Source: Deltaproteobacteria bacterium (lineage in GTDB: Bacteria > Myxococcota_A > Polyangia > DRWM01). Taken from it: a DNA stretch of 51,828 nucleotides. The position numbers were made by a program, and so were the translations under genes. Positions 1,389-35,307 of the stretch are shown here, piece by piece. The notes beneath the pieces are model-generated. The model had not been told where the DNA came from, ran no database searches, and saw nothing but the letters and a program-made list of their open reading frames with translations. The first letter of the stretch is position 1; every line of letters starts with the position of its first letter. The stretch spans positions 1-51,828 of the forward strand of contig JAFDER010000007.1 in assembly GCA_019310245.1 (NCBI GenBank), written 5' to 3'.

Positions 1389-1468
1389 CGGAACATGACC
1401 GCCGGGCGGCACGGGCGTTGCACATCCATCCGTTGCAGACAGCGCGGACAAGGGGTCGGGAACGAGAA

Positions 1469-2341: not shown

Positions 2342-2393
2342 GCCTCTCTCGTAGAGCTTGAACTTTTTCACCCGACGGATAACTGTCTTGCGG

Positions 2394-4181: not shown

Positions 4182-4371
4182 TCCTCCGGTCGTCCCGGCT
4201 AAGATTGTCAGCTCCGCCGTTCGAGGATACACTTTCACGAGGGGGATCGTGAGTTGGGAACAAGCCGCCGGAGTCGATCGTCTACGAGATCGACGAACAG
4301 TGGAACCTCGCGCGTTTCGCGTTCGTCATGATCGGCAGCGAGTCGATGATCAGAACGGAGGTCTTCAGGTT

Positions 4372-9226: not shown

Positions 9227-9576
9227 TTCGCGCTCCAGTAGGATGCGACTCCGGTGGCCAGGATCTGCTCGACCAGGAACTCGTACGCCGCCTGCTCGAC
9301 CCGTGCCTCGTTCTCCGCCTCGAGGGCCTCGATCTCCCTTCCCGCGGCAGCCTTCTCCATCTCGTGCGCCGAGTCCATGGCCCCGAGCAGGTCGAGCTGG
9401 AGCCCGAGCAGCCTCTCGTCGCCCGCCTCGAGAAGCTCGCGCGCCACCTCCATCTCGGAAGGCGCCACCTCGCCCATGCCGCGCGCCTCGAGCTCCTCGA
9501 GCACCGCCGCGGGCTCGCCCGCCTTGATGGACAGGGAGGCGAGCATCACCACCGTCATTGCTATTGTCTTCGACAT
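9223..9576 (-). CDS. Small secreted helical protein, translationally coupled to the downstream lipoprotein
   Basis: Start chosen at MSKTIAMTVVMLASLSIKAG (signal-like) inside ORF 9223..10239. Acidic helical body. Its stop overlaps the next ATG. Confidence 0.5.
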   Translation of the reverse strand: MSKTIAMTVVMLASLSIKAGEPAAVLEELEARGMGEVAPSEMEVARELLEAGDERLLGLQLDLLGAMDSAHEMEKAAAGREIEALEAENEARVEQAAYEFLVEQILATGVASYWSAK

Positions 9577-9697
9577 CGTTGCGTGCTCCGCGAAGGTAGA
9601 AGATTCTTTCACAGGAGAGGGTCGAGATCCACCTCGATCGGCCCCATTGCCGTGGTGATGTTCCCGTCGTAATGTCGGTGACCGACTGGAGGAGTGA

Positions 9698-11806
9698 ATG
9701 AGAATCCGACCATTGGCAACCACCGCTGCCGTGGTTCTCCTCGCCGCGATGAACGGGTGCGGGGGCGACGGCGGAGGCCGGAAGGGGCTGTGCCCGGAGC
9801 CTGCGTCCGGCGGGCCAGTGGCCCTGTTCGACCTGTTCTCGCCCTCGGGCGAGGAGCTCGCGCCGTTTCCCACGGACCTGAAGACCGTCGCGGACGCCGA
9901 TTCGCCGACGGGGCTCAGGCTCGCGTACTCGCGATCCATGTTCAGGAACGGGCTGAACGTGCTCGACGGCGCCGGACTGCAGTCCATCCACTTCGTGCCG
10001 TTCGCCCGTTCCATCGATCCTGCCAGCCTGCCGGCCTCCCCGGCCGCGAGCACGGCCGACGGCTCATCCCTGTTCCTCCTCGACATCGACGGGCTCGGCG
10101 ACGCCGAGGCCGGCACGCTCGCCACGCGCAAGCGTGCGATCGAGACCGGGGTCGTCCACGACGGGAACTCGATCTTCATGCCCACGATCCGCAACGCCAT
10201 CGCCGCGAGGCCCACCGGACGCCTGGAGCCCGGCCGCACCTACGCGCTGGTCACCACGGCCTGCGTCACCGCGCCCGACGGCTCGGGCCTCGGGACCCAG
10301 GAGGGATTCGCGGATATCAGGGACGGCGGCGCGCCGCCGTCGGAGGCGAATCCCGAAGCGGCCGGGGATCTGGCCCGCGTGATCGCGTACCTCGAGAGGG
10401 AAGGGTACCACCGCGGCGATCTGGCCATGGTCACCACCTTCACGACCCAGGTGCCGCAGCACGTGCTCAGCGCCGCGCGCGAGGTGTTCGAGAGCCTTGA
10501 CGCCCCCGACCCCGTCGTGACGCTCGTGTTCGATGCGGCCGACGCGGACGGCAACCTGCACCCGGACCTCATGGATCACATCGAGGACCCCGACATCGAC
10601 GGGGACCCGGCGGATCTGCTCTCGGACTTCGACCTCTCCACCTACAGGTTCGACCGCATCGACAAGGTGGTCTTCGGCACGTTCGAGGCGCCCAGCTTTC
10701 TCGACGACGATGAGATGTTCTCCATCGACGAGACGTGGACCCCCCGGGTCACCGGGACCGAGACGCTGCAGTTCCTGCTGACGCTGCCGCGCGAGGACAC
10801 CGACGCGGGCATCGCGCCTCCCTACCGCGTGCTCGTCTACCAGCACGCCATGACGGTGTGCAAGGAGACGATCCTCCCCCTGGCCGACACCATGGCGCGG
10901 TTCGGGATCGCCGTCATCGGCATCGACACGGTCAAGCACGGCTCGCGGCACCCCGACGAGCCGGGCACGTGCAGCCTCGAGTTCGGCACCTTCATGTACA
11001 TCGACAACTTCTCGCGCTCGAACTCGTACTTCATGCAGACCGTGGTCGACATCTGGAGCCTCGTCGCCATGCTCCAGCGCGGTAGAGGCATCGACGTGCT
11101 GCCGGATCCGGGCGGCGACGGAACGCCCGATCTGGACGTCGAGAGGCTGGCCTTCGCCGGCCAGTCCATGGGCTCGAGCATGGGCATGGATGCCATGGCC
11201 CTCGAGCCCGCCTTCGGCGCGGGTGTGGTGAACGTGGGCGCCGGCTCGATGATGAACCTCATGCTCTCCATGAGCATGGATCTTCCCGACGATCCGGTGC
11301 CCGCGCTCTCGCAGTACGGGCTCTACGAGATGAACATGGGCGCCCTGGTTCCCGCCATGGCGGACCGGGGCGATCCCCTGACCTGGGCGGGCCACCTGAT
11401 CCGTGATCCCGTCTCGCCCGCGCGCACCACGCCGCTCTCGCTCCTCTACCAGCAGGCCGCCTACGACGAGATCCTCCCGTACGAGAGCGCCGCGGTGACG
11501 GCGCAGATCATGGGCATCCCGGGCGTGATGCCCGCTTTGCGTCCCGTTGATGGGCTCGATGCGGCCTCGACCCCGGTCTCGGACAACCTCGACGGGCTCA
11601 CGGCCGCGCTTTTCCAGTACGACCGGCCCGCCGAGCACCAGTTCCTGCTCACCTGCGAGGACCCGGCGGTCATGTTCGCCGGCCAGCTCCAGCTCGCCGT
11701 GTTTGCCGACACGTACCTGCGGGGCGGCCCGGCCGTGATCATCGATCCATTCGACGACGCGCAGATCGCCGCCCACGCACCCGGCTGGGAGTCCTGGACC
11801 CCCTAA
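9698..11806 (+). CDS. Large lipoprotein, alpha/beta-hydrolase (lipase/esterase-like)
   Basis: Signal/lipobox VVLLAAMNGCGG. Nucleophile elbow AFAGQSMGSSMG (GxSxG) with HG-type context (VYQHAM...HGSRH). SD GGAGGAG lies before the ATG. Confidence 0.7.
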   Translation: MRIRPLATTAAVVLLAAMNGCGGDGGGRKGLCPEPASGGPVALFDLFSPSGEELAPFPTDLKTVADADSPTGLRLAYSRSMFRNGLNVLDGAGLQSIHFVPFARSIDPASLPASPAASTADGSSLFLLDIDGLGDAEAGTLATRKRAIETGVVHDGNSIFMPTIRNAIAARPTGRLEPGRTYALVTTACVTAPDGSGLGTQEGFADIRDGGAPPSEANPEAAGDLARVIAYLEREGYHRGDLAMVTTFTTQVPQHVLSAAREVFESLDAPDPVVTLVFDAADADGNLHPDLMDHIEDPDIDGDPADLLSDFDLSTYRFDRIDKVVFGTFEAPSFLDDDEMFSIDETWTPRVTGTETLQFLLTLPREDTDAGIAPPYRVLVYQHAMTVCKETILPLADTMARFGIAVIGIDTVKHGSRHPDEPGTCSLEFGTFMYIDNFSRSNSYFMQTVVDIWSLVAMLQRGRGIDVLPDPGGDGTPDLDVERLAFAGQSMGSSMGMDAMALEPAFGAGVVNVGAGSMMNLMLSMSMDLPDDPVPALSQYGLYEMNMGALVPAMADRGDPLTWAGHLIRDPVSPARTTPLSLLYQQAAYDEILPYESAAVTAQIMGIPGVMPALRPVDGLDAASTPVSDNLDGLTAALFQYDRPAEHQFLLTCEDPAVMFAGQLQLAVFADTYLRGGPAVIIDPFDDAQIAAHAPGWESWTP

Positions 11807-12016
11807 ACTGGCAGGCGATGAAGCTGCCGCCACGGAGCATCGTTGCGTTCATCTGCACGTAGGCTGCCTGCGGTCCTCCCGACAGCACACGTTCCCTGGG
11901 CGACCAAGGGCATGTCGGGGCGCGGGGTCGAAGGCACCATGGAGATCCCCGGTGCCGGAGTGCCCCGCGCTCCCCATGCCCGTGCAGTAGGGTGCCGCGG
12001 ACATGGGAGAAGCAAG

Positions 12017-12790
12017 TCAGTCGTCGGATTCCAGGCGTGCGACGAACTCGTCGACCAGTGCGGTGTAGTCCGTGCGCGCGCGGCCCGACTCGGGCTCGAA
12101 CTCGTAGATCGTCGTGCGGTGCGACGGGCAGGTCTTGAGCTTGGTGTCGATGCGGATCATCGTTCGGAAGACGCGGCTGCCGAACGTCTTGCGCAGGATC
12201 TCCTCCACCTCCCATGTGATGCGCTCGCGGCGGTCCACCTGCGTGAGCACGTAGCCCATGACGCGCGCCGGGATCCTGAGCTTCATCCGGATGCGGCCCA
12301 GCGCCTCGTTGAACTGCTTGAGGCCCAGGATGGGCAGGTACTCGCAGTTGACGGGCACGAGGATCCAGTCCGCAGCCGCCAGCGCGGCCATGGTCGATGC
12401 GCCCATGTGCGGCGGCGTGTCCACGACCACGGTGCCGGTCACCTGCGTGAGCGCGCGCCGCAGCGCGTCGGGGCTGGCGGGGAAGGCGTCCACGGCCTCG
12501 GGCTCGCCGCTCCAGGGCAGGACAAAGAGCCTCTCCGTGCCCGTCGCTCGGCTTGCCCCTTCGGCCGTCGCCTCGCCGCGCAGCACCTCCACGATCCCCG
12601 GGCCGGCGGAGCCGGGATCGAGCAGGTGGGCCGTGGCGCTGCCCTGGGCGTCGAGATCGACGAGGAGCGTCTCGCGGCCGAGCCGGGCCAGGCCGGCGGC
12701 CAGGTGCACGGCCGTGGTCGTCTTGCCCACGCCTCCCTTGAGGTTGGCCACGGCCACGACGGTCGACGAGCCTGTCCGGTCTGCGCCCAT
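12017..12790 (-). CDS. ParA/MinD-family P-loop ATPase
   Basis: Deviant Walker A VANLKGGVGKTTTAVHLAAGLA, then LLVDLDAQGS and VVVDTPP. Start taken at MGADRTG inside ORF 12017..13708, 8 nt after the upstream stop. Confidence 0.85.
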   Translation of the reverse strand: MGADRTGSSTVVAVANLKGGVGKTTTAVHLAAGLARLGRETLLVDLDAQGSATAHLLDPGSAGPGIVEVLRGEATAEGASRATGTERLFVLPWSGEPEAVDAFPASPDALRRALTQVTGTVVVDTPPHMGASTMAALAAADWILVPVNCEYLPILGLKQFNEALGRIRMKLRIPARVMGYVLTQVDRRERITWEVEEILRKTFGSRVFRTMIRIDTKLKTCPSHRTTIYEFEPESGRARTDYTALVDEFVARLESDD

Positions 12791-17541: not shown

Positions 17542-17906
17542 GGGAGGCGAGTGGTCCTGTAAGCCGGGTTCTGTCGAGTGCGATCATTCATCTGGGACGG
17601 ACGTTGCCGTCCGCCTCTTGCGACCTACCCGGGGACGTTGAGCGGGCCGCCCGGTCCCCTGCTTGGTCTTGCTCCGGACGGGGTTTGCCGTGCCCCCGAC
17701 GTCACCGCCGGGGCGGTGGGCTCTTACCCCACCGTTTCACCCTTGCTCCGATCCAGAGAATCGGGGCGGTTTATTTTCTGTGGCACTTTCCGCCGGTCAC
17801 CCGGCGTCCGCGTTACGGACCGTCCTGCCCTCTGGAGCCCGGACTTTCCTCCGATCCGCCCTCCGAGGAGGACCGACCGGCGATCGCACGGACCACTCAC
17901 ACTCCC
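17542..17906 (-). ncRNA. rnpB: RNase P RNA, bacterial type A
   Basis: The reverse complement contains GGAGGAAAGTCCGGGCTCCAGAGGGCAGG (CR-I), GCAAGGGTGAAACGGTGGGGTAAGAGCCCACCGCC and AGATGAATGATCGCACTCGACAGAACCCGGCTTACAGG (CR-IV/V). The P1 stem is GAGTGGTCC (5' end, about 17898-17890) paired with GGACCACTC (3' end, about 17557-17549). Ends are approximate. Confidence 0.9.
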
Positions 17907-19234: not shown

Positions 19235-20509
19235 ATGAAGAGACGGATCACGCGCAGGAGGTTCATCGTGCGCGGCACGTGCGCCGCAGGAGGCCTGCTG
19301 GCCACGGCGTTCGTGCCGGGGTGCAGGGACAAGGGAGGCTGCGCCGAGGTGCTGCCCGAGCAGCCTCCACCGCAGCTGCCGCCGCCCGTCGAGTTCACCT
19401 ACGTCGAGGGCTCGACCGCCGCGTTCCCCTACCTCGAGGTCTCCGGCAACCCGCGCGAGGTGGGCAAGGCCATCGGCAAGCGTTTCGGCGGTCTCATCCG
19501 CAAGGGCCTCGACCGCCGCATGGAGTGGTTCAAGAAGATCCGGGACTACGCCACGGGCGAGGGGCTAAGCGCCTACGAGATCTTCGTCGACGCGGCGCGC
19601 AAGCACACGCCACGCGCGCTCGCCGAGCTCGAGGGCTGGGCCGAGGGCTCGGGCCTGCCGTTCGAGGACCTCATGGCCCTGAACCTCAAGAGCGAGATGT
19701 CCGAGCTCATCCACCAGAAGACGAAGGAGATGCCGCCGACCGACGAGCAGCAACCCGGCTGCTCCACCATCGTCCTGTCCACGCCCGACCGGCTCTACCA
19801 CCTGCACAACGAGGACGGCCACGACGCCTACGCCGACCTCATGTTCATGCTCAAGGTCAAGCCCGACGAGGGCGTGCCCTACCTGACCCTGTCCTACCCC
19901 GGCATCCTGCCCGGCAACGCGCCGGCACTCAACGCCAGCGGCCTGGTCCAGACCACGAACTTCATCAGCTCGCGCGAGGTGCGCCCCGGCGTGGGCCGCT
20001 ACTTCCTCGACCGGATGATCCTCGAGGCGAAGTCCATCGAAGAGGCCCTCAAGTGGGCCACGCACCCCGAGCGCGCCTTCGCCTTCCATCACGTCTTCTC
20101 CTCTCTTCCGGAGAGGAAGGCCGTGGCCGTGGAGGTCACGGCCACGAAGAAGGAGGTCAGGCCCATCAGCGGCCTGTACTTCCACACGAACCATCTCGTG
20201 TTCGAGACCATGAAGGACGAGGAGCAGGACGAGGAGTACGTCTCCACGTCGTCGACGAACCGCTACGAGGTGCTGGACGCCTGGCACCGGGCCCTCGAGG
20301 ACCCCGCCGCGCTGGGGCGCACGAGCCTGCTCGAGCCTCTCTCCTCCCACGAGCGCAAGCCCTGGAGCCCCTGCCGCCACCCCGAGGGCGACGTGCACGG
20401 CTACACCCTGGCCACGGCCGTGTTCGAGGCCCCCGCCGGGACCATGCGCGTCTCCAGGGGCCAGCCCTGCCTCGAGCGCTGGATGGAGTACGAGCAGCCG
20501 GCTTCCTAG
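19235..20509 (+). CDS. Tat-signal lipoprotein, peptidase C45 / acyl-CoA:6-APA acyltransferase-like Ntn hydrolase
   Basis: Twin-arginine ITRRRFIVRG plus lipobox VPGC. Putative autoprocessing/nucleophile site QQPGCSTIVL followed by LHNEDGHD, as in C45-family proteins. Starts 4 nt after the ABC ATPase stop. Confidence 0.6.
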   Translation: MKRRITRRRFIVRGTCAAGGLLATAFVPGCRDKGGCAEVLPEQPPPQLPPPVEFTYVEGSTAAFPYLEVSGNPREVGKAIGKRFGGLIRKGLDRRMEWFKKIRDYATGEGLSAYEIFVDAARKHTPRALAELEGWAEGSGLPFEDLMALNLKSEMSELIHQKTKEMPPTDEQQPGCSTIVLSTPDRLYHLHNEDGHDAYADLMFMLKVKPDEGVPYLTLSYPGILPGNAPALNASGLVQTTNFISSREVRPGVGRYFLDRMILEAKSIEEALKWATHPERAFAFHHVFSSLPERKAVAVEVTATKKEVRPISGLYFHTNHLVFETMKDEEQDEEYVSTSSTNRYEVLDAWHRALEDPAALGRTSLLEPLSSHERKPWSPCRHPEGDVHGYTLATAVFEAPAGTMRVSRGQPCLERWMEYEQPAS

Positions 20510-21758
20510 CGGCGCCCCATCAAGTCCTGAGCGGCGTGCAGCGCGTTGGCCATGCGCTCGGCGAGGTGGAGCGCGCCGGTGAATCCGAGGAAGGGCGTGT
20601 CCGTGAGCACGTGGTGCGAGGTCGACGGCACGCCCAGCTCGACCACGGCCATGCGAGGCCGGAAGATGGGCGTGTACTCGCCGCTGCACATCACGAGGTC
20701 GTCCGGCCCGGCGCCGGCCTCCCGGAGCAGGTGGTAGGGATCGCCGACCACGGGCTCGCACACCACCCGAGCATCGATCGCGACGTCGTCGAGATGCCCC
20801 TGCCTTCCCTTGACCACCGCGATCCTGACGCGCATCCCCAGGTCCGTGCACAGGCCGGCGAGGCCCTCGAGCATGTGCGGGTCGCAGACGAGGTGCGCGG
20901 ACCGGCCCAGGAAGTAGAAGGGGATCGTGCGCTCGAGCCTCTCCGCCGCGCGGCCGATCTCCTCGTCGATGAACGCCCGTGCGCGCTTCTCGCGGCCGAG
21001 GGCCCCGGCGACCGCCTCGATCCACTTCCTCGTCCCCTCGAGCCCGATCGGGACGCCCGTCTGGACGACCCGCGCCCCCGTCATGCCGGCCACGATGCGG
21101 GCGGCCTCGCGGCCATAGGGCAGGGAGATGATCGCGTCGGCGCGGCCGACCTCGTCGAGGTCCTTCCACGCGACGCCGCCGGGCCAGACCGACACGAGCG
21201 TGAGCCCGAGCGCCCCGAGCATCCGCCCGAGCTCGGCGAGGTTGCCCCGCTGGTCGCCCTCGCCACGGTCCATCATGTGGCCGACGATTGCCACGGCGTT
21301 GCGCTCCCGACGATCACCGAGCTCCTTGTTCCTCGCGACCGCGGCCAGGGTCTCGGCGTAGCCGTCGAGCCAGTCGCCGCCGTCCCGGCGACGATCCGGT
21401 CGTACTGCACGCCCGTGATCCCGCACAGGGGCATGGAGGTCAGGAGCACCGCCCCTGCCTGCTCGTGCGCTGCCCTCTCGATGGCCCCGGTCACCTCGGC
21501 CTCCCGGTTCCAGGAGACGTTCTGCGCGTTGGTGCCGGTGAACAGGATGCGGTGCCTCCCGTCGACCCTGTAGAGCGTGGAGGTCCAGTCGTGCCTGCCG
21601 TGTATGAACTGCCCCTTGAAGTGCGCGCAGTCGGGGCCGTCGACCACGAGCCAGACGTCGTCGATCGCGTTCACCGCGATGTAGACGCCCATGAGGTACG
21701 GTAGGTTGTGCCTCAGGCCGTGGGGGAACACGTCCGAGCTGTCAGTGCGTCCGGCCAT
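20506..21758 (-). pseudogene. Nitrogenase component-1-like subunit (NifK/NifN/BchB-like) with an apparent 1-nt frameshift near 21380-21392
   Basis: The N-terminal half lies in ORF 21273..21893 (MAGRTD...VVDGPDCAHFKG...LTSMPLCGITGVQYDRIV). The C-terminal half lies in ORF 20506..21426 (DGGDWLDGYAETLAAVARN...AIVGHMMD...). The span of 1253 nt is not a multiple of 3. The switch falls at a CCCGGCG/GCCGCC run. Confidence 0.6.
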
Positions 21759-23352
21759 GCGTTCCGTACTTCCTGTAGAAATCGGCCCGGCACGCACCCA
21801 CGAGCCGCTCGGCCGTGCGCACCGCGCCCTCGAGGCCCGGCTCGAAGAGCTGCAGGCAGAACGGCATCTTGCCCGCCGCCGTGATCCGCGCATCGCAGTA
21901 CAGGTCCGAGTAGATCGCCCCGCAGGGCAGATCCCGCATGAGCCGCTGCAGCGACTCCCTGTCGTCGAACCGGTGGATCTCCACGCCCGGACGATCGTCC
22001 GGCGCGGGTCCGTCCCCGTACACCATGAGGTCGATGCCGAATCCCATCTCGCACACCACGCCCAGCACCGGCACGCCCGCCATCTTCACGGGATCGCCCA
22101 GGGCCGCACACTCGTCCGCATCCACGACGAATCCGAGCCTCACGCCCGCCGCATCCTGCCTCAGGCGCCTGCGCTCCGCCGCGCACCGGCGCATCCGCCT
22201 CTTCCACGCCCTTCTCATCTCCGCCTCCCGGCCGACGGATCGCGCGATCGCCTCGAGCCACCTGCGCGTGTCCGCGACTCCGTGGGGCGTCGGCGGCTCG
22301 ATCGTCTCGAGGGGCAGGGGCCGGAACACGCTCTCGTAGAGCGCATCGCGGTACGGATCGGGCACGAGCACCTGGACTGCCGCCCTGCGCCAGTCCCTGG
22401 CCCTCTCGAGATCGATCCGGGGCACCAGCGCGCTCACGACGTCGATCCCCGCCTCGACGAGCAGTCCCTCGAGCTCCACGAGCGCCGGGCCCGGAGCGAT
22501 GCCCGCCAGTGCGACCGACGATCCGCGCCGCTTCCTCCTCTTGCCCGAGTCGATCGCCGCCGCGAGCAGCTCTGCGGTCAGGTCCCTGCCCGCCGGTGCG
22601 AACACGTCGTCGTAGATGATGTCGCCGCGACCGCTCCACCTGCGCACCGACTCCTGCATGTCGTCGCCGATGACGTGAGGCATGCACGTCGACCTGACCA
22701 CCACCACGTCCCCTTCGCACGTCCTGTCCGCCAGCGCGTCGAGCACGGCGTCGAGCTTGGCCGCGCCGCCCGTGATGATGTCCGCGTCGCGCATGTCGGT
22801 GGTGATGAAGCTCGGGATGGAGCGTTCCGGCGCCGGCGCGTTCGGCACGTGCGCGAGCGGCCGGATCCAGGGATAGCAGAACAGGGACATCGATCGCGCG
22901 TCGATCGCGGGCGTGGCGTACTGGCACTCCGACTCGCCGTGCGAGACGGTGACCACGCGCCTGCCCGTCACGCGCAGGGCGCTCGAGGCGTTCCTCTCGA
23001 ACTCGCGGCGGAAGACGAACCTGCGCCACGCGTCGGGTGCACCCCACTGCTCGACCGTGACGACCCCCCGGTCCACGATCTCTTCCGGATCGACCGCACC
23101 ACGCTCCTGATCCTCCTCCGGGACCTTCTGCGCGATCTCATCGAACGTCGCGTCACCGAGCCTCCCCGCGATCGACCGCAGGATCCGCTCCTGCTGGGCG
23201 GTGATCGTCGTGCCCTCGTACCTGAAGGACAGGTGCCTCGTCTCCAGCAGGCACGGGCCGCTGCCGGCCGGCGAGATGATGATGGTCAGCGGCGCGACGC
23301 CCTCGTACGTGACGTTCATGCGCACCGCGTCGCCGCGGCGCACGAGCGCCAT
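21742..23352 (-). CDS. Nitrogenase component-1-like subunit (NifD/NifE/BchN-like) with a long N-terminal extension
   Basis: VTVSHGESECQY occupies the HGxxGC-type position. RSTCMPHVIGDDM is the TCxxxxIGDD motif of the Oxidored_nitro family. Start taken at MALVRR, 17 nt after the NifH-like stop. The 3' end overlaps the next gene by 17 nt. Confidence 0.7.
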   Translation of the reverse strand: MALVRRGDAVRMNVTYEGVAPLTIIISPAGSGPCLLETRHLSFRYEGTTITAQQERILRSIAGRLGDATFDEIAQKVPEEDQERGAVDPEEIVDRGVVTVEQWGAPDAWRRFVFRREFERNASSALRVTGRRVVTVSHGESECQYATPAIDARSMSLFCYPWIRPLAHVPNAPAPERSIPSFITTDMRDADIITGGAAKLDAVLDALADRTCEGDVVVVRSTCMPHVIGDDMQESVRRWSGRGDIIYDDVFAPAGRDLTAELLAAAIDSGKRRKRRGSSVALAGIAPGPALVELEGLLVEAGIDVVSALVPRIDLERARDWRRAAVQVLVPDPYRDALYESVFRPLPLETIEPPTPHGVADTRRWLEAIARSVGREAEMRRAWKRRMRRCAAERRRLRQDAAGVRLGFVVDADECAALGDPVKMAGVPVLGVVCEMGFGIDLMVYGDGPAPDDRPGVEIHRFDDRESLQRLMRDLPCGAIYSDLYCDARITAAGKMPFCLQLFEPGLEGAVRTAERLVGACRADFYRKYGTHGRTH

Positions 23353-23369
23353 CTCGACAAGCCCGCCCG

Positions 23370-24203
23370 TCACCTCGAGAATTCCCGGCGCGACAGCTCG
23401 TAGAACGTCTTGTCGTCCATGGGCGTCGGAGGCTCGATCCTCGCGGGATCGATCCGGAGCACCTTGCGCGCGAGCTTGCCCAGGTTCTTCACCGTCTCGC
23501 AGTCCGGGGCGTGCTCGGCCAGCGTGAGTCTCCTGTACTCCGCCTTCCTGAACCGCGCGTCCCGCCTCAGCGTGGCCACCACCCTCGTCTTCAGCTTCCG
23601 GGCGAAGCGCCCGATCATCCTCTCGTCGGCCTTCGCGTCCTTGAGGTTCGCGACGAGCCCGCCCAGCACCACCCCGTTGGGGGCGCAGTTGACCACCGCG
23701 CGCGCGATGTTGTTGGCCGCGTACAGGCTCATGAGCTCGTCGGAGACCACGATGAAGACCTTCTCGCCGAAGCCCTTGCGGAGCGGCGTGGCGAAGCCTC
23801 CGCACACGATGTCGCCCAGCAGGTCGAACAGCACCGTGTCGTAGCCGTTTCGCTCGAGCAGCTCGCTCTCCGTGAAGAACTCGAGCATCCGCGCGATCCC
23901 GCGCCCCGCGCACCCCACGCCGGGTTCCGGCCCCCCCGCCTCGATGCAGTGGATCCCCGAGCGCGCCTCGAGGAGCACGTCCTCGAGCCTCACGTCGTTC
24001 GTCCTGATCAGCTGGTCGATGACCGTGGGGATGTCGGTCCGGCTCATGAGCAGCATCGTGGCGTCGCGCTTGGGGTCGCACCCCACGAACAGCACCTTCC
24101 TGCCCATCTGCGCGTAGATCGTGCTCAGGTTCGTCAGGATGGTGGATTTGCCGATGCCACCCTTGCCAAGGAACACGATCCTCTCGATCCGCTTCTTGCT
24201 CAT
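23370..24203 (-). CDS. NifH/BchL-family ATPase (nitrogenase iron-protein-like)
   Basis: GKGGIGKST (P-loop), VGCDPKRDAT (switch I), GGPEPGVGCAGRGI and DLLGDIVCGGFATPL (both 4Fe-4S Cys ligands retained). Start taken at MSKKRIERIVFL. Confidence 0.85.
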   Translation of the reverse strand: MSKKRIERIVFLGKGGIGKSTILTNLSTIYAQMGRKVLFVGCDPKRDATMLLMSRTDIPTVIDQLIRTNDVRLEDVLLEARSGIHCIEAGGPEPGVGCAGRGIARMLEFFTESELLERNGYDTVLFDLLGDIVCGGFATPLRKGFGEKVFIVVSDELMSLYAANNIARAVVNCAPNGVVLGGLVANLKDAKADERMIGRFARKLKTRVVATLRRDARFRKAEYRRLTLAEHAPDCETVKNLGKLARKVLRIDPARIEPPTPMDDKTFYELSRREFSR

Positions 24204-24222
24204 GGGTTCTGCCGTTGTATCA

Positions 24223-24228
24223 ATTATA
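24223..24228 (-). promoter_or_regulatory. Perfect TATAAT hexamer 19 nt upstream of the NifH-like ATG (candidate -10 box)
   Basis: The minus strand reads ...GACGGCC TATAAT TGATACAACGGCAGAACCC ATG. No convincing -35 and no SD. A consensus A/T hexamer is conspicuous in this G+C-rich DNA. Confidence 0.25.
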
Positions 24229-24319
24229 GGCCGTCGCGTGAAGCGCGGGTGCTTCCGGAGAATAATCCTAGCGAAACGGGGTTTGTAGCCGTCAGGAGGG
24301 CGGGCACCGCGGAAAAGGC

Positions 24320-25363
24320 ATGAAGAAGAGGCTCGCATTCCTCGCGCTCTCGCTCCTGGTCCACGCGGGCCTTCTCTCGGTGATCCTGCTCGTCGGGCCT
24401 CCGGTGATCGAGGGTGATCCCGGGCTGATCGTCCACTACGTCGAGACCGGGGCCCGGCCCGAGGCCGCGCCGCCGCCCACGGAGCCCTCACCGCCTGACA
24501 TGCCGGAGCCGCGCCCCGCGCGCCGGCAGGTGAGTCATTCTTCACCCGAGACCGTCATCGAGGTCGAGCCTCCTGCGGCGCCTCCAGCGCCGGCCCCGGC
24601 CGCCGGGAAGACGAAACCGCAGTTCAGGTCGAATCCCTTCAAGCTCTCCTACGAGGTGCTCTCGGAGACACTCGGGCCTCTCGAGGTGGAGCAGGGGCCG
24701 CTGGACGTGGACGGCATGCTCGGGGCCTACTTCGACGAGCTCGAGGCGTACAAGACCGTCAGGTACGGCACGTTCGACCCCGGGCTCCTGACGCTCCGCG
24801 ACGGCATGGAGGACTTCTGGCACCCCGACTTCGGGCAGATCCACGACAGCCCGCTCAAGGGCGCGGTGGGCAAGATGCTCGCGAGCTGGCAGAAGACGGC
24901 GCAGACCTACGGGCATACCGGCTCACCCGTCGAGGATCCGCCCACGAACCAGTTCTACGGAGACATGAAGCCGCAGGACCTGGGCATTCTTGACACGTAC
25001 GAGCAGCTGGAGAAGTCGGACGCGTTCACGACGCGTGCCAGGCTCGTCGTGCGCATCGACTTCGACGGCAAGGGAGGCTGGAAGGTCGAGAAGCTCTCGG
25101 GATCGGGGTACTCGGAGGTGGACCACGCCGCGATGGAGGCCGTGCACGAGGCCCTCGAGGCGCACGACGACCTCGTGCCGGGGTACGAGGCGAGGACCAG
25201 GTGGGCGCTCGAGGCGGACTTCACGGTCCTGCCGCCGCTGCCCGTCGCGGGTTTTACCTTCGACCTCGCGCTGGGCGTGTTCGAGACGGCCTATCCCCTC
25301 AAGAAGACGGTCAGGCGCAGGATCAAGCTCCTGGCCGTGGCCCTGCCACAGCCCGAGGCATAG
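24320..25363 (+). CDS. TonB-like membrane-anchored protein (tentative)
   Basis: N-terminal TM helix LAFLALSLLVHAGLLSVILLV. Pro-rich spacer (PEAAPPPTEPSPPDMPEPRP, EPPAAPPAPAPA). The C-terminal block VVRIDFDGKGGWKVEKLSGSGYSEVDHAAMEAVHEA resembles TonB_C. Confidence 0.5.
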   Translation: MKKRLAFLALSLLVHAGLLSVILLVGPPVIEGDPGLIVHYVETGARPEAAPPPTEPSPPDMPEPRPARRQVSHSSPETVIEVEPPAAPPAPAPAAGKTKPQFRSNPFKLSYEVLSETLGPLEVEQGPLDVDGMLGAYFDELEAYKTVRYGTFDPGLLTLRDGMEDFWHPDFGQIHDSPLKGAVGKMLASWQKTAQTYGHTGSPVEDPPTNQFYGDMKPQDLGILDTYEQLEKSDAFTTRARLVVRIDFDGKGGWKVEKLSGSGYSEVDHAAMEAVHEALEAHDDLVPGYEARTRWALEADFTVLPPLPVAGFTFDLALGVFETAYPLKKTVRRRIKLLAVALPQPEA

Positions 25364-27316: not shown

Positions 27317-28072
27317 CTAGGTGGAGGCGAGGATGGCGGCGCCCAGGGCCGCGACGCACCGGGGCTCCTCGGGCACGTGGACGTCGGTGGACAGGCCGCG
27401 GGCGACGAGATCGACCATGCAGGCGTTGAGGGCCACGCCTCCGACGAACATCACGCCGGGCTCGACGCGGACCCTCTGCATCATCGAGACGGTGCGGCGG
27501 GCAGTGGCCTCGTGGATCCCCAGGGCCACGTCCTCGCGCGCCATGCCGCGCGCCACCATGGAGACTACCTCCGACTCCGCGAACACGGTGCACATCGAGT
27601 TGATCTCGACCGGTGACGACGTGGCCGTGGCCGCGGCCACGGCCGCGGCCACGAAGTCGCGCATCGAGAAGCCGAGCGCCGTGGCGATCACCTCGAGGAA
27701 CCGGCCCGTGCCCGCGGCGCACCTGTCGTTCATCTCGAACTTGCGCACCTTCCCGCTCTCGTCGAGGCACACGGCCTTGGTGTCCTGACCGCCGATGTCC
27801 AGGATCGTCCGGCACTCGGGCCTCAGCCGGCCGGCGCCCACGCTCACGGCCTTGATCTCGCTCACCGCCTCGCATCCGAGGTACGTGACGGCCAGCCTTC
27901 TTCCGTAGCCGGTCGCGACGAGGCGGTCGTACCCGACGCCCTCGAGCAGGCCCGAGACCTGCGAGACCGGGTCGTGCGTCGTCTCCGCGATCCGGGAACG
28001 CGCGATCCGCCCGCCCTCGATCACGACGAGCTCGATCGAGCGCGAGCCGATGTCGATGCCCGCGGCCCGCAC
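27317..28072 (-). CDS. BadF/BadG/BcrA/BcrD-type ATPase: activase of a 2-hydroxyacyl-CoA-dehydratase-family enzyme
   Basis: AGIDIGSRSIELVV (ASKHA phosphate-1), ILDIGGQDTK, NDRCAAGTGRFLE (cluster Cys), VFVGGVALN. GTG start at 28072, 2 nt after the upstream stop. Confidence 0.85.
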   Translation of the reverse strand: MRAAGIDIGSRSIELVVIEGGRIARSRIAETTHDPVSQVSGLLEGVGYDRLVATGYGRRLAVTYLGCEAVSEIKAVSVGAGRLRPECRTILDIGGQDTKAVCLDESGKVRKFEMNDRCAAGTGRFLEVIATALGFSMRDFVAAAVAAATATSSPVEINSMCTVFAESEVVSMVARGMAREDVALGIHEATARRTVSMMQRVRVEPGVMFVGGVALNACMVDLVARGLSTDVHVPEEPRCVAALGAAILAST

Positions 28073-28074
28073 GC

Positions 28075-29358
28075 TCAGCCCTCGATCCGTTCCACGAACG
28101 CCTCGACCCGCGTGCGGATCTGCTCCACGTCCTCCTGCGAGTAGTCCGTGTCGATGCGCAGGACCGGGATCCCGTCCTTCTCGAGCGCCCGCTCCACCGG
28201 CCCTGCCTCGATCTGGTACGGGTGGCAGAACTGCAGCCCGTAGTGGATGACGCCGTCGGCCTTCAGATCCTTCGCCATCTCGCGCACGTGCTCGAGCCTG
28301 CCCGGGTTGGGAGTGAACACGGCGCAGTCGATCTCGAAGTAGCGGTCCACGATGTTCTCGACGAGCGCCTCCACGCTGCCGCCGGAATCGTCCACCAGGT
28401 TCCGGGTGCCCCTCTCGCCCACGCACGACTCCTCGCCCACGATCACCGCCTTCGTGGAGCTCTCCACGATGTGAGGCACCTTCCAGTTCGGGATGGCCAT
28501 GGGGCAGCCGCTCATCAGGATGCGCGGCGCGCCCTTCGGCCTGACGCCCTGGCCGGCCTCGATCCGCTTCTCGAGCTCGTCGCAGATCTTGTTGATCGAG
28601 TCGGTGAAGCGCGGCGGGTCGTCGTAGAAGGAGATCTGGTTCGCCAGGAGCGCGTCCAGCCCCGAGATGGGGGCGGGATCGGCGGCCCGCAGCCTCGAGA
28701 GCCTGTGCAGGGCCCCGCGCTTCCCGTTCACGGTCCGGATGCCCTCCCTGAGCGAATCGACCGTGATCGTCCTGCCCGAGACGTCCTCGAGCTTCTTCAG
28801 GAACTTGACGTACTCGCTCCTCAGGATGGCCCGTCCCTCCTCGCTCTTCATCTGCGGCATGTCCATGACGAAGAGGTCGCTGACGTGCTCCGCGAAGATC
28901 TCGTACGCCTTCTTCTTGCCGTCGCAGGTGTTCTCCCCCACGATGAGGTCGCTTGCCAGCATGTACGGGCACACCTTCCCGAGCTGGAAGCCGAAGAAGC
29001 CCTTGATGAGCGAGCAGGTGTTGCGCGGCAGGTACCTCTCGGCCTCCTCGAGGCCCCAGGGCGCGCCGGCACACAGGCCGACGCAGATCCCGTGAACGGC
29101 GAGCACGAGCTCCTCGGGCACGAAGACGCAGAAGGTGCCCACCACCTTCCTGCCCTCCGCCCGGGCGTCCACGAGCTCCTTGATCCTGAGGCCGTGCACC
29201 TCCGTGATCACGAAGTCGAGGTACTTCATGCCCTCGGGCCGGTTCTCCTGGCTGTGGTACACGTCCTTGTAGCCCTGTCCGAGGACCTGCATGAGCGTGT
29301 CGTGGGCCTCGAGATCGATCCCGAGCTCTTCCCACATGGGACGGTAGTCTGTCGACAT
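28075..29358 (-). CDS. 2-hydroxyacyl-CoA dehydratase family protein (single-subunit, YjiM / double-cubane-cluster-protein-like)
   Basis: Typical HGD-D-family blocks VGTFCVFVPEELV, GENTCDGKKKAYE, ILMSGCPMA, VIHYGLQFCHPY and many conserved Cys. SD GGGAGG before the ATG at 29358. Confidence 0.8.
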   Translation of the reverse strand: MSTDYRPMWEELGIDLEAHDTLMQVLGQGYKDVYHSQENRPEGMKYLDFVITEVHGLRIKELVDARAEGRKVVGTFCVFVPEELVLAVHGICVGLCAGAPWGLEEAERYLPRNTCSLIKGFFGFQLGKVCPYMLASDLIVGENTCDGKKKAYEIFAEHVSDLFVMDMPQMKSEEGRAILRSEYVKFLKKLEDVSGRTITVDSLREGIRTVNGKRGALHRLSRLRAADPAPISGLDALLANQISFYDDPPRFTDSINKICDELEKRIEAGQGVRPKGAPRILMSGCPMAIPNWKVPHIVESSTKAVIVGEESCVGERGTRNLVDDSGGSVEALVENIVDRYFEIDCAVFTPNPGRLEHVREMAKDLKADGVIHYGLQFCHPYQIEAGPVERALEKDGIPVLRIDTDYSQEDVEQIRTRVEAFVERIEG

Positions 29359-31821: not shown

Positions 31822-33942
31822 TTGGCTGAGGCGGTGCAGCTCAAAGCTTACGGTCGCGTCGATCTCGACGGCACTCACAGGGCGGTCGTCGAGGCGGACT
31901 GGCCGGAGATTCCAACCACGGGGGACGACTCCCGGACAACCTACCTCGAGCTCGAAAGCGGAGGCATGAGCTGTGCCGTCCTGCTGAGCGAGCACAGAAG
32001 CTCGACCGAGGGCAGGATCTACCTCGACCGCTACAAGCAGTGGCACCTCGGAATCCGCGACGGGGATCCGGTGCACGTGCGCGTGGCCACGCCGGAGCAG
32101 GCCGGCAAGGTGGTGCTGAGGGTCCCGGCCAACTTCTCCAGGCGCGACGTGGTGCGCTTCATCGGAAAGCCGCTGACGCGCGGCGAGAAGACGGCGCTCT
32201 ACACGTTCGGCGGCGATGCGCGCCTGATCGAGGTCGCCGAGGCGGGCCCGGGCAGGATCGTGGTGGTCGCCCCGTCCTCGGACGTGAGGACCACAACCTC
32301 GCAGGTCGATGACGTGCCGGTCACGTACAAGGACATCGGCGGCCTCGGCAGGGAGGTGGAGCGGATCCGCGAGGTGGTGGAGTATCCGTTCCGGTTTCCG
32401 GAGCTGTTCCAGCACCTGGGTGTGTCGCCTCCGCGCGGCATCATCCTGAGCGGCCCGCCCGGAACGGGCAAGACGCTCATCGCCAGGGCGCTCGCCAACG
32501 AGTCCGGGGCGCGGTTCTTCTCAGTGAGCGGCCCGGAGATCTACTCCAAGTGGTACGGCAAGAGCGAGGAGAACCTCAGGAACATCTTCGCAAGCGCCGT
32601 GCGCGACGCCCCCTCCATCGTGGTGATCGACGAGCTGGATGCGCTCGTTCCGATCAGGGAGAAGACTCACGGCGATCAGGAGCAGAGGATCGTCGCCACG
32701 TTCCTCACGCAGATGGACGGGCTGAAGGAGATGAAGGACGTGGTCGTGGTGGGCACGACCAACCGGATCGACGCGATCGACCCCGCGCTCAGGCGCGGAG
32801 GACGGTTCGAGTGCGAGGTCCACATCGGCGTGCCGGACGAGGCGGGCCGGCAGGAGATCCTGGCCATCCACTCCCGCAGGATGCCGCTGGGGCCGGACGT
32901 GGACCTCGGGCAGGCGGCGTCCATGTCGTCGGGGTTCACGGGTGCCGATCTCGCGTCGCTGTGCCGCGAGGCGGCCTACTCCGCACTCAGGAGGGTGTTT
33001 CCGGGTCTGTCCACGGAGGGCGGGGAGCTCGACGGGCTCGACCGGCTCGAGGTGTGTCAGTCCGATTTCGAGAAGGCGCTCTCCTCGGTCCCCCCGTCGG
33101 CCCTCAAGGAGTTCCTCATCGAGATCCCCGCGGCGGGCTGGGACGACGTGGGAGGGCACGGGGAGACGAAGAAGCTCCTCGTCGAGAACATCTGCTACGC
33201 CGTCACACGGCGCGAGGCGTTCCGCAGCGCCGGCATCGAGCCGGCGAAAGGCATCCTTCTCTACGGGCCTCCCGGCACGGGCAAGACGCTCCTCGCGAGG
33301 GCCGTGGCGAGTGAGTGCGGCGCGCAATTCATCGCGCTCAGGGGCCCGGAGATCCGCTCGAGGTGGCTGGGGGAGTCCGAGGAGCGGATCAGGCAGCTGT
33401 TCAAGAAGGCCCGCACCGTTGCTCCCTGCGTGATCTTCATCGATGAGATCGACGCCGTGGTGCCGGCGCGCGGCGGGTCACCCTCGAGCTCCACCGACGG
33501 GGTCGTCAACCAGCTCCTCGCTGAGATGGACTCCATCGAGGGCGGGGCGGGCGTGTGCATCGTCGGGGCCACGAACCGGATCGGGATCCTCGATCCCGCC
33601 GTTCTCAGGCCGGGCCGCTTCGACTGCCTCGTGGAGGTGGGCCTGCCGGACGGGCGCGACAGGGAGGAGATCTTCGCCGTGCACGTGCGCGGCAAGCCCC
33701 TGGCACCCGACGTGGATCTCGCCCTGCTCGCGGCCCTGACCGAGGGCCTGTCCGGAGCCCAGATCGCGGAGATCTGCCGGCTGGCCGCGTGGTCGTCGCT
33801 CAGGGAGGCGGGATTCGAGGCAGAGGGCCTCGTCGTCGCCGCGGGCCACTTCGGCAGCGCGCTCGAGCGCGTCCGCAGCACAGCGGACGGGGTGGCACGC
33901 TTGCTCAGGGTCGTGGCCGCGGGTGGGGAGGACGGAACATGA
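31822..33942 (+). CDS. Cdc48/VCP-like AAA+ ATPase (N-domain plus two AAA modules)
   Basis: N-domain GRIYLDRYKQWHLGIRDGDPVHVRV. D1 has GPPGTGKTLIARALA and VVIDELD. D2 has GPPGTGKTLLARAVA and IFIDEID. Both carry SRH-like GRF(E/D) motifs. The start is TTG 31822 or GTG 31834, after AAGGAGG at 31811-31817. The stop overlaps the next ATG. Confidence 0.85.
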   Translation: MAEAVQLKAYGRVDLDGTHRAVVEADWPEIPTTGDDSRTTYLELESGGMSCAVLLSEHRSSTEGRIYLDRYKQWHLGIRDGDPVHVRVATPEQAGKVVLRVPANFSRRDVVRFIGKPLTRGEKTALYTFGGDARLIEVAEAGPGRIVVVAPSSDVRTTTSQVDDVPVTYKDIGGLGREVERIREVVEYPFRFPELFQHLGVSPPRGIILSGPPGTGKTLIARALANESGARFFSVSGPEIYSKWYGKSEENLRNIFASAVRDAPSIVVIDELDALVPIREKTHGDQEQRIVATFLTQMDGLKEMKDVVVVGTTNRIDAIDPALRRGGRFECEVHIGVPDEAGRQEILAIHSRRMPLGPDVDLGQAASMSSGFTGADLASLCREAAYSALRRVFPGLSTEGGELDGLDRLEVCQSDFEKALSSVPPSALKEFLIEIPAAGWDDVGGHGETKKLLVENICYAVTRREAFRSAGIEPAKGILLYGPPGTGKTLLARAVASECGAQFIALRGPEIRSRWLGESEERIRQLFKKARTVAPCVIFIDEIDAVVPARGGSPSSSTDGVVNQLLAEMDSIEGGAGVCIVGATNRIGILDPAVLRPGRFDCLVEVGLPDGRDREEIFAVHVRGKPLAPDVDLALLAALTEGLSGAQIAEICRLAAWSSLREAGFEAEGLVVAAGHFGSALERVRSTADGVARLLRVVAAGGEDGT

Positions 33943-35291
33943 GCCGCGCCATGGCAGCGCTCGCCTCCCTGGCCCTGTGCCTCGGCGGCGCGGCCGCCTC
34001 GGGGGCCGCGGCTCCCGTCGAGCTGGACATCGTCATCCTCGTTGACACCTCGGAGTCGATGCAAGGATTCGGCAAGCAGGCCCTGGCCGGGTTCGCGGAC
34101 GGGCTGGGAGGCTCGAGCCGCATGGCGCTTGCCACGTTCGGAGAGGAGGCCCGGATGGTGCGGCCGCTCAGGACCGTGACGGGCAAGGACCGGGCCAGGT
34201 TGATGAAGTCCATCAGCACGCTCTCCTTCTCCTCGAGCTTCAAGGACATGGAGGGCGGCCTCACCCTCGCGCTCTCGCATCTCGTTCTTCACGCGAGGCC
34301 CGGAGCGGTGCGGGCGGTGGTGCTCGTCACCAACGGCGACGTGCTTCCGTCCGCCGGGCCCGGGACGGCGGAGGACATCGTCAAGCAGCTCACGGACGGG
34401 ATCCTGTACGAGTACCTCGTCGAGGAGATCCCGGTCCACACGGTGGCCTTCGGAGCCTCGGACGTCGATCTCATGCAGGACATCGGGTCGAGCACGGGAG
34501 GCAAGAGCCTCGTGGCGCCCGACGCGATCGCGCTCAATGACGCGCTGTCGCTGCTCTCGGCGACGCTAGCTCCCGCCGCGCCGGAGCAGCCCGCGCCCGT
34601 CCTGGCAGCCGTCGCCCGGGACAGGCCTGCGGAGTCGGACGCGAGGATGGCGTCCACGCTCGTGGCCGCGGCCGGAGGCGCCGCGGCCCTCGCGCTCGTC
34701 ATGGGCATGCTCGTGCTCGCGCTCCTGCTCGTCAACACGGTCCGGCTCGGCGCCCTGGTCAGGAGCCAGCCGCCGGCGGAGCCGAAGGGCGCCTCCGCGC
34801 CCGGCGCCTTCGCGGGCCTGCGCAAGAAGGCGGGCCGGATCACGAAGCTGCTCATGGAGGCGCGCTCGAGCATCGAGGGCTTCAACGTGGACCTCGAGGA
34901 CTACGCCGCGGAGTCGTGGGAGAAGGAGAAGGAGCTGAGCAACAGGTACCACAGCCTGGCCTCGAGCCTCTTCCTGCTCATCGACAATCTCGAGGTGCAG
35001 GAGAGGAGCGGCGGCGCGGGCGACGGCTCCGACTGGCTGGCCAGGCGAGCGCGCAAGATGCTGGCGAGGGAGGGGATCGAGGAGATCACCGTGAGCGAGG
35101 GCGACTCCTTCGACGGCATGTATCACAAGCACGCCGGAGATCGCGACGACGACCGGCCCGAGGGAGCGGTGCTCGAGGTCACCCGCAAGGGTTACTACGT
35201 CATGGGCGTCTCGCCGGACGGGGACGACATCATCCTGAGGCACGCGGAAGTCGTCGTGAGCCGCGGCAATGCAAGGCGCAGGGCGGGATGA
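33939..35291 (+). CDS. Fusion protein: signal/anchor, VWA domain, TM helix, coiled coil and GrpE-like C-terminal domain
   Basis: MSRAMAALASLALCLGGAAASG. VWA motifs VILVDTSESM...VLVTNGD. TM helix LVAAAGGAAALALVMGMLVLALLLV. The C-terminus GIEEITVSEGDSFDGMYHKHAG...VLEVTRKGYYVMG...ILRHAEVVVS aligns by eye with the GrpE beta-domain. ATGA overlap with the AAA+ gene. Confidence 0.8.
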   Translation: MSRAMAALASLALCLGGAAASGAAAPVELDIVILVDTSESMQGFGKQALAGFADGLGGSSRMALATFGEEARMVRPLRTVTGKDRARLMKSISTLSFSSSFKDMEGGLTLALSHLVLHARPGAVRAVVLVTNGDVLPSAGPGTAEDIVKQLTDGILYEYLVEEIPVHTVAFGASDVDLMQDIGSSTGGKSLVAPDAIALNDALSLLSATLAPAAPEQPAPVLAAVARDRPAESDARMASTLVAAAGGAAALALVMGMLVLALLLVNTVRLGALVRSQPPAEPKGASAPGAFAGLRKKAGRITKLLMEARSSIEGFNVDLEDYAAESWEKEKELSNRYHSLASSLFLLIDNLEVQERSGGAGDGSDWLARRARKMLAREGIEEITVSEGDSFDGMYHKHAGDRDDDRPEGAVLEVTRKGYYVMGVSPDGDDIILRHAEVVVSRGNARRRAG

Positions 35292-35307
35292 CCGCACGGA
35301 GGTGAAC

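Follow-up and report, generated by a model that had tools for sequence, protein, structure and literature searches.

A putative Group VI nitrogenase-like H-D-K operon, standing alone and with an interrupted K gene, in an uncultured myxobacterium

Introduction

Group VI paralogs of the nitrogenase superfamily were defined in groundwater Elusimicrobia, and the same study noted homologues in fourteen genomes of Myxococcales and two of Gracilibacteria (10.1101/765248). Their D and K subunits are highly divergent, with some P-cluster cysteines missing, and they occur without genes for assembly of an M- or P-cluster. Neighbouring genes often encode radical S-adenosylmethionine (SAM) or B12-radical SAM enzymes, with the number of such genes varying between 0 and 13, and reduction of a tetrapyrrole toward a novel cofactor has been proposed as their function (10.1101/765248). 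The carriers in Table S2 of that study include Myxococcales and Deltaproteobacteria metagenome-assembled genomes (MAGs), as well as a cultured carrier, Enhygromyxa salina SWB007 (10.1101/765248). A 2026 review grants Group VI no more than four of the six P-cluster cysteines and neither Cys275 nor His442, and still lists it as functionally uncharacterised (North & Shafaat, PMC13474568). Here, we describe three consecutive genes, nflH, nflD and nflK, which together span 20506-24203 on the minus strand of contig JAFDER010000007.1 from a Deltaproteobacteria bacterium (Myxococcota; assembly GCA_019310245.1). The whole stretch of DNA that was analysed (51.8 kb; positions 1 to 51,828; G+C ~68%) is referred to as the window.

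Group VI is the largest nitrogenase-like branch without an assigned reaction, and its substrate, once found, would extend the chemistry of ATP-driven Fe-S reductases. A sequence-only reading of the window had taken the operon for an unrecognised reductase clade of uncharacterised function. The second part of that statement agrees with the review cited above, but the operon matches the Group VI paralogs of Méheust et al. (2020), which had already been reported in Myxococcales. What is new is this myxobacterial locus, whereas the clade itself, myxobacteria included, was described in 2020. The locus adds (i) a myxobacterial subclade with H-D-K alone and no radical SAM partners, (ii) a predicted ligand pattern in which the 2+2 site of CfbD would recur in a heteromer, and (iii) a conserved N-terminal domain of D without structural precedent. 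With its damaged K gene, the locus in the window is no better an experimental entry than its intact relatives or the cultured Enhygromyxa salina SWB007.

Relationship to Group VI

At a probability of about 0.6, and judging from sequence comparisons, we read the locus as a stand-alone Group VI-type NflHDK operon of an uncultured member of the Myxococcota, for which a mechanism based on an interfacial cluster can be proposed. The first gene had been taken for a NifH-family ATPase, and the Pfam match to Fer4_NifH bears this out (Table 1). All four motifs named for it were found, i.e. GKGGIGKST (aa 13-21), CDPKRDAT (aa 42-49), GVGCAGRGI (Cys98) and GDIVCGGFATPL (Cys134), and switch II is present as well. 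NflH was 55% identical to the H protein of an Elusimicrobia MAG locus (L017), 40% to NifH of NGR234, and 37-38% to BchL and BchX. Its best database matches were proteins from Myxococcota or 'Deltaproteobacteria' MAGs (65-92%), followed by Elusimicrobiota proteins annotated as 'AAA family ATPase' (52-59%). In a neighbour-joining tree, it fell into a Myxococcota clade (bootstrap 100) that was sister to the Elusimicrobiota H proteins (bootstrap 66), with NifH, BchL and BchX outside this group. The protein thus has the properties reported for Group VI NflH, namely a position outside groups I-V, about 40% identity to NifH, equivalents of Cys97 and Cys132, and the Walker and switch motifs.

The Elusimicrobia locus L017, which comprises four Oxidored_nitro genes, one H gene and radical SAM genes, also served for comparison of the two larger subunits. 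The D subunits of the window and of L017 aligned over their full length, including the N-terminal extension, with 30% identity (E = 5e-63), and the K subunits with 43-45% identity (E = 6e-103). As in Group VI, where D and K share about 22-25% identity with NifD and NifK, both subunits are strongly divergent, no more than four of the six P-cluster cysteine positions are filled, ligands for the iron-molybdenum cofactor (FeMo-co) are absent, and neither NifB nor NifEN is encoded in the window.

The sequence-only reading had also assigned D to the Oxidored_nitro family and named two of its motifs. Both assertions stood: the Pfam match runs from residue 132 onward, and VSHGESEC (Cys143) and STCMPHVIGDD (Cys223) were recovered. 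Alignment with NifD was restricted to 24% identity over 79 aa only. An exhaustive profile search retrieved 524 cluster representatives of D at E <= 1e-30, most of which cover the N-terminal domain; the family is therefore widespread in uncultured bacteria. With clade-specific search patterns, a scan that took one genome for each GTDB species found relatives of D only in Myxococcota and Deltaproteobacteria MAGs, and a scan of metagenome loci seeded by D alignment A2 returned 6 loci. Broader D alignments of 97 and 20 sequences contained no run of 7-10 conserved columns.

Residues 1-80 of D form a family-wide and family-specific domain, confidently modelled with four strands and two helices. It is followed by a disordered linker (aa 81-105) and a conserved WRRFxFRREF motif. 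The domain has no Pfam match, and when it was modelled alone and compared with the PDB, the best Foldseek hit had E = 0.24, which left it without a fold assignment. For the whole subunit, an AlphaFold2 (AF2) model was obtained with a predicted local distance difference test (pLDDT) score of 79.8. Foldseek top matches of this model were NifD and MarD, with the NifE fold among them as well (E ~1e-15, TM score ~0.5, 15-17% identity). Among sequences of solved structures, MarD was likewise the best match of D, both from the single sequence (E = 9e-6) and with the profile of its clade (9d9u_A and 9fmg_A, E = 1.3e-18), in the latter case followed by NifE.

A Pfam scan of the 39 other predicted proteins of the window supported the earlier statement that no nif, bch or cfb genes lie nearby. 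It revealed no NifB-like, NifE or NifN protein and no radical SAM protein of the MarB or IsrB type, and Radical_SAM had 0 matches among the 39 proteins, unlike in many Group VI neighbourhoods. The visible part of the genome is the 51.8-kb window, and the absence of accessory genes holds for this window.

Comparison with characterised enzymes

Subunits were scored against curated NCBIfam models, each with its own bit-score cut-off. Every cut-off for nitrogenase (Nif), for the dark-operative protochlorophyllide and chlorophyllide oxidoreductases (DPOR and COR) and for CfbCD was missed, in line with the earlier claim that the catalytic subunits are far from canonical sequences and fall outside the characterised enzymes. 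NflH reached 270.6 bits with the nifH model (cut-off 394) and 269.3 with CfbC (402), compared to 178.9 with BchL (345) and 166.9 with BchX (331). The highest score of D was 30.8 bits for nifE (cut-off 505), with 23.7 for CfbD (TIGR03282; 268) and 21.7 for nifD (653); the BchN model gave 15-21 bits (324-420). K scored best with BchB (44-46 bits, cut-off 490), followed by BchZ (33-39 bits, 529) and nifK (21-25 bits, 427), and had less than 28 bits to a NifK sequence.

The locus shares individual features with each of the characterised systems, but in every case other features differ. (i) Nif, Vnf and Anf nitrogenases as well as the methylthio-alkane reductase MarBHDK (Group IV-C) use six P-cluster cysteines. 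The six positions and the Cys275/His442 pair are incomplete in the window, where D lacks equivalents of Cys62, Cys275 and His442. Among solved structures, the D profile matches MarD best, and MarD is also one of the top structural matches. However, the Mar enzyme carries a P-cluster and an L-like cluster held by six cysteines together with Cys270 and His429; these ligands are absent from the window proteins, and so is MarB. (ii) DPOR (BchLNB/ChlLNB) and COR (BchXYZ), which constitute Group V, are encoded by three genes and act on an organic substrate with a single interfacial [4Fe-4S] cluster in a heteromer, and BchB and BchZ are the best curated matches of the K subunit. The NB-cluster of DPOR, however, is held by three cysteines of N and one aspartate of B, compared with the predicted 2+2 cysteines here, and the window is devoid of chlorophyll (bch) genes.

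(iii) CfbD uses the equivalents of NifD Cys88 and Cys154, the ligand pair also predicted for D of the window, for an all-cysteine 2+2 [4Fe-4S] cluster, and has no complex metallocluster; NflH moreover obtains equally high scores with the CfbC and nifH models. On the other hand, CfbD is a homodimer without K, whereas the window encodes a D/K heteromer with an additional N-terminal domain in D. Furthermore, cfbA, cfbB and cfbE are missing from the window, and the host is bacterial, whereas the context of CfbCD is methanogens or anaerobic methanotrophic archaea (ANME). (iv) The isethionate reductase IsrHDK (Group IV-F) resembles the locus in a predicted four-cysteine [4Fe-4S] cluster, in the absence of L-cluster ligands, and in an H-D-K operon with a non-diazotrophic role. 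It was compared by its published cysteine pattern. Isr has a 1+3 pattern (D Cys88; K Cys70, Cys95 and Cys153) compared to 2+2 in the window, where D has a Cys154 equivalent in addition and K has no equivalent of Cys70, i.e. no cysteine before VVDGPDC. Isr moreover depends on the radical SAM protein IsrB and is encoded in a sulfonate locus; the window has neither.

Compared with Group VI itself, the locus agrees in the identity of about 40% between H and NifH with both cluster cysteines and the nucleotide motifs, in the divergent D and K with at most four of six P-cluster cysteines, and in its myxobacterial host. Homology to the Elusimicrobia H-D-K proteins is full-length and includes the D N-terminal domain, Cys275 and His442 are lacking in the same way, and NifB and NifEN are not nearby. 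It differs in that K is interrupted, in that no radical SAM gene is present in 51.8 kb, and in having a single D/K pair, whereas some relatives have an additional D'/K' pair.

Predicted ligands and proposed mechanism

In a profile alignment of the D clade with NifD (hhalign, probability 96.5), Cys143 corresponded to Cys88 and Cys223 to Cys154. Nothing aligned with Cys62, and the Cys275 column was occupied by proline. By inspection, the region of NifD His442 reads PFCLQLFEPG in D and has no histidine. Both cysteines of D are conserved in at least 90% of 97 diverse family members. In K, Cys44 (VVDGPDC) is the equivalent of NifK Cys95, the MPxC motif with Cys112 falls in the region of NifK Cys153, and there is no cysteine at the position of NifK Cys70.

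From these ligands and by analogy with related enzymes, the following mechanism can be proposed. NflH would act as a homodimer with a bridging [4Fe-4S] cluster held by Cys98 and Cys134, and would bind MgATP at its intact P-loop and both switch regions. Single electrons would pass from NflH to an NflD/NflK heteromer. One simple [4Fe-4S] cluster would be located at the D/K interface, with two cysteines each from D (Cys143, Cys223) and K (Cys44, Cys112) as putative ligands. The proposed geometry, 2+2 cysteines, would represent a heteromeric version of the symmetric arrangement in CfbD. By analogy with DPOR, COR and CfbCD, this cluster would reduce an organic substrate, most likely an unsaturated one. 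As no P-cluster and no site for FeMo-co or an L-cluster are predicted, N2 should not be the substrate.

Interruption of nflK

The third gene had been described as one K gene. This did not hold: the 1253 nt of 21758-20506 are not divisible by 3 and are spanned by two open reading frames (ORFs) in different frames (21273-21758 and 20506-21426). The two hallmark motifs reported for it, VVDGPDCAHF and TSMPLCGITG, are indeed present, but both are confined to the 5' piece, while the Oxidored_nitro match is found in the 3' ORF only. Alignment with the intact orthologues L001 (431-aa K) and L023 revealed a 43-nt deletion at ~21381/21382, the placement of which is ambiguous by ~2 nt. Past the deletion, the 5' ORF reads 36 codons in the wrong frame before it reaches a stop at 21273.

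Through the deletion, K loses ~14 conserved residues, which correspond to VDVDRPVVEVPGRSL, and the reading frame changes. The VDVDRPVVEVPGRSL segment is kept in all seven aligned K relatives (7/7) and corresponds, in the profile alignment, to the NifK strand and loop that hold Ser188 beside the P-cluster site. As sequenced, nflK would give no functional K subunit, and the deletion is probably inactivating. K is intact in three close relatives (L001, L023 and the P0003 contig), in which synteny is the same as in the window. The 5' fragment is 86% identical to the N-terminus of the L001 K protein, and the 3' fragment is 78% identical to its residues 142-427. In both fragments, the G+C content at third codon positions (GC3) is 0.95, like that of neighbouring genes. 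The ratio of nonsynonymous to synonymous substitution rates (dN/dS) between the K gene of the window and the intact orthologues was 0.18-0.41, and that between the two intact orthologues was 0.20-0.44. Because GC3 is retained and dN/dS is not raised, the lesion is either very recent or, as an artefact of assembly or of a sequence variant, unrepresentative of the whole population.

It is possible, if somewhat unlikely, that the organism itself has an intact, working operon and that the 43-nt gap reflects an assembly error or a minor variant. The composition of both K fragments, their identity to the intact orthologue and a dN/dS equal to that between intact orthologues would all fit, and H and D are undamaged. 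Splits of K can be artefacts, as in locus L032, where K (3200-4572) appeared to be divided into ORFs of 122 aa and 338 aa at nearly the same place; a second case of K split by deletion was rejected there, since the cause was a 10-N scaffold gap. A clean loss of 43 nt with no N and with repeats of only ~6-9 nt at the junction, by contrast, is atypical for a short-read assembly error. The deposited contig carries the deletion, and conservation does not separate a very recent deletion from an artefact.

Gene neighbourhoods and alternative interpretations

Several points weigh against assignment of the locus to Group VI and against the mechanism outlined above. Membership was judged via proxies, i.e. 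Elusimicrobiota and Myxococcota MAG sequences of similar origin plus matching properties. Deep support in the H tree is weak: the node parting the whole set from NifH had a bootstrap of 6, and one sequence each of NifH, BchL and BchX made up the references of the tree. In the profile alignment, Cys112 of K (SMPLC) sits two residues off the column of NifK Cys153; this second cysteine is moreover not universal, being missing in L006 K and L007 K1. The radical SAM co-occurrence on which the tetrapyrrole hypothesis is built is absent at the window locus.

The description of the operon as stand-alone was correct for the window and its closest relatives, but not for distant members of the same D family, which lie in radical-SAM-rich clusters. 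The closest relatives (D ~70% identical; 72% in L001) have a stand-alone H-D-K operon with the same synteny as in the window, and the genes are likewise intact in a second subclade with a stand-alone operon (L004/L005), in which D is 42% identical. Radical-SAM-rich surroundings, which are frequent but not obligatory in Group VI, were found at L003, L006, L007, L015, L017, L027 and L028. L003 includes four B12-radical SAM genes and radical SAM methyltransferases; in L003 and L010, H-D-K is accompanied by an additional D'/K' pair and by numerous B12-radical SAM genes. A conserved block in the order radical SAM-H-D-K-ABC-GTPase-radical SAM is shared by L006, L015, L027 and L028. The D family also includes predicted fusion proteins, for which gene-calling artefacts are possible: NifH-like/D fusions of 790-1040 aa (P0152, P0159, P0175, P0180, P0187 and P0213) and two radical SAM/D fusions (P0214 and P0264), with the radical SAM domain C-terminal in one and N-terminal in the other. 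Together, the radical SAM/D fusions and the clusters support functional coupling with radical SAM enzymes.

Some of these loci carry more than one set of subunits. L007 contains two complete, divergent H-D-K sets in tandem (486-4731 and 9102-12480) with a radical SAM and a B12-radical SAM gene between them; its H proteins share 44% and 77% identity with NflH of the window, and its first D protein has 710 aa. A second, shorter D'/K' pair, in which D' is devoid of the N-terminal domain, lies beside H-D-K in L003 (12960-15555), L017 (3920-6729) and L010 (13061-15555). This arrangement recalls NifDK with NifEN, or one reductase serving two catalytic components. No such pair occurs in the window.

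Tetrapyrrole reduction toward a novel cofactor, in concert with radical SAM or B12-radical SAM enzymes from other parts of the genome, appears rather unlikely as the function of the operon. It would be in keeping with DPOR, COR and CfbCD, three characterised nitrogenase-like enzymes that reduce tetrapyrroles, with the CfbD-like ligand pattern, with the radical SAM/D fusions, and with the radical SAM neighbours in L003, L006, L007, L015, L027 and L028. Yet no tetrapyrrole gene was seen in any locus examined, and a link sought via the accessory genes of L006 received no support. The TP_methylase of this locus, the only candidate, is weakly RsmI-like and not a uroporphyrinogen methyltransferase, and its cobW-like protein is weakly HypB-like. 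The radical SAM proteins of L006 had their best matches, all below cut-off, among models for C-methyltransferases of ribosomally synthesized and post-translationally modified peptides (RiPPs) or other natural products, for HxsC, and for MoaA-like proteins. An Rfam scan at gathering thresholds of the window and five related loci detected RNase P RNA only, and no cobalamin or other riboswitch or leader. In addition, radical SAM neighbours are lacking altogether in the window and its closest relatives. When 23 accessory proteins of L003 and L006 were searched against the window with tblastn, K was the sole match. A 262-aa ABC ATPase beside K in L006 and L028 was considered as a homologue of the ABC ATPase in the window and was rejected at E <= 1e-3.

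Quite doubtful, in our view, is a role of the stand-alone Myxococcota subclades (window, L001, L023 and P0003; separately L004/L005) as self-sufficient ATP-dependent reductases of a non-tetrapyrrole substrate, with the D N-terminal domain aiding recognition of the substrate or a partner. If true, such a reductase would represent new chemistry for the nitrogenase superfamily, independent of radical SAM partners.

Still less probable is that the operon is a decaying relic, i.e. that the stand-alone Myxococcota subclade has lost its pathway partners and that the copy in the window is turning into a pseudogene. Such decay would explain a frameshifting deletion in an essential part of K and the absence of partner genes nearby, and D is evolving fast (dN/dS 0.41-0.50). 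Nevertheless, H, D and K are intact in the three syntenic sister contigs, purifying selection acts on H (dN/dS 0.19-0.21) and on the 5' part of K (0.18-0.23), the second stand-alone subclade is undamaged, and there is one lesion only. Membership in a characterised clade (MarHDK, IsrHDK, CfbCD, DPOR/COR or true nitrogenase) with partners elsewhere is very improbable, as the match of the D profile to MarD and then NifE and the similar scores of H for nifH and CfbC stand against NCBIfam scores far under the cut-offs, the missing D ligands, the deviating Isr cysteine pattern, a K subunit that CfbD does without, no NifB, MarB or IsrB-type protein in the window, and a likeness to the Elusimicrobia set several-fold above that to any characterised enzyme.

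Locus layout and surrounding genes

Coordinates for the preferred reading of a Group VI-type NflHDK operon are given in Table 1. The reported 17-nt overlap between D and K was reproduced, with the ATG of K at 21758 and the stop of D at 21742. The reported 17-nt gap between H and D, however, applies only if D starts at the ATG at 23352 (536 aa). The GTG at 23373 (543 aa), which overlaps the H stop by 4 nt, is the likelier start, because relatives (P0002, P0004 and P0005) begin ~7 codons upstream of the ATG.

Table 1. Coordinates of features at the nflHDK locus, given as positions in the window.
Feature	Position	Strand	Basis
nflH, NifH-like ATPase/reductase, 277 aa	23370..24203	-	Fer4_NifH E = 8.6e-79
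nflH P-loop	24141-24167	-	motif search
nflH switch I	24057-24080	-	motif search
nflH cluster Cys98	within 23895-23921	-	motif search
nflH cluster Cys134	within 23781-23816	-	motif search
nflD, catalytic-component subunit	21742..23373	-	Oxidored_nitro E = 1.5e-25
nflD family-specific N-terminal domain, residues 1-80	23113-23352	-	model pLDDT ~90
nflD Cys143 (HGESEC)	22924-22947	-	motif search
nflD Cys223 (STCMPHVIGDD)	22660-22692	-	motif search
nflK 5' fragment, 125 native codons, Cys44 (VVDGPDC) and Cys112 (SMPLC)	21383..21758	-	ORF 21273-21758
nflK 43-nt deletion junction	21380..21383	-	DNA alignments with intact L001, L023
nflK 3' fragment, 291 codons and stop, other frame	20506..21381	-	Oxidored_nitro E = 5.1e-34
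nflH/347-aa gene divergent intergenic region	24204..24319	.	sequence inspection

In the intergenic region upstream of nflH, a TATAAT hexamer was noted at 24223-24228 (minus strand), ~20 nt upstream of the nflH ATG, but a consensus scan of 24204-24319 found no full sigma-70 site. The gene on the other side of this region (24320-25363, plus strand) is divergent from nflH and encodes a protein of 347 aa with a hydrophobic N-terminal segment and a proline-rich stretch; it is conserved beside nflH in the window as well as in L001 and the P0003 contig. Its description as TonB-like had weak support, as its sole family match was sub-threshold (TonB_2, E = 0.068, 13.8 bits compared to a cut-off of 22). 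The other neighbour named earlier, a C45 Ntn hydrolase, was recovered with a clear match to C45/AAT (PF03417, E = 3.5e-31).

A full-length bacterial RNase P RNA of class A (299 bits) is encoded at 17544-17899 on the minus strand; the gene occupies a syntenic place in L001, which indicates an ordinary chromosomal region. About 3 kb from nflH (27317-29337, minus strand), a BcrAD_BadFG-type activator ATPase (251 aa) adjoins a single HGD-D subunit resembling 2-hydroxyacyl-CoA dehydratase (420 aa). The two form a further ATP-dependent pair for Fe-S electron transfer, which is syntenic in the P0003 contig. Further away (31822-37269, plus strand), genes for a VWA-GrpE fusion protein and an Hsp70-family protein come after one for a double-AAA (Cdc48-like) ATPase. 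At the end of the window (44906-51823, plus strand) lies a run of Fe-S/flavoprotein genes. One encodes a Fer2_4/Fer4 protein, another a protein of 960 aa that combines Fer4_20, Pyr_redox_2 and FlpD (MvhD-like) domains, and a third a protein of 681 aa in which Fer2_4, Pyr_redox_2 and BFD occur together. The run also contains a DAO oxidoreductase gene, which is truncated at the contig end.

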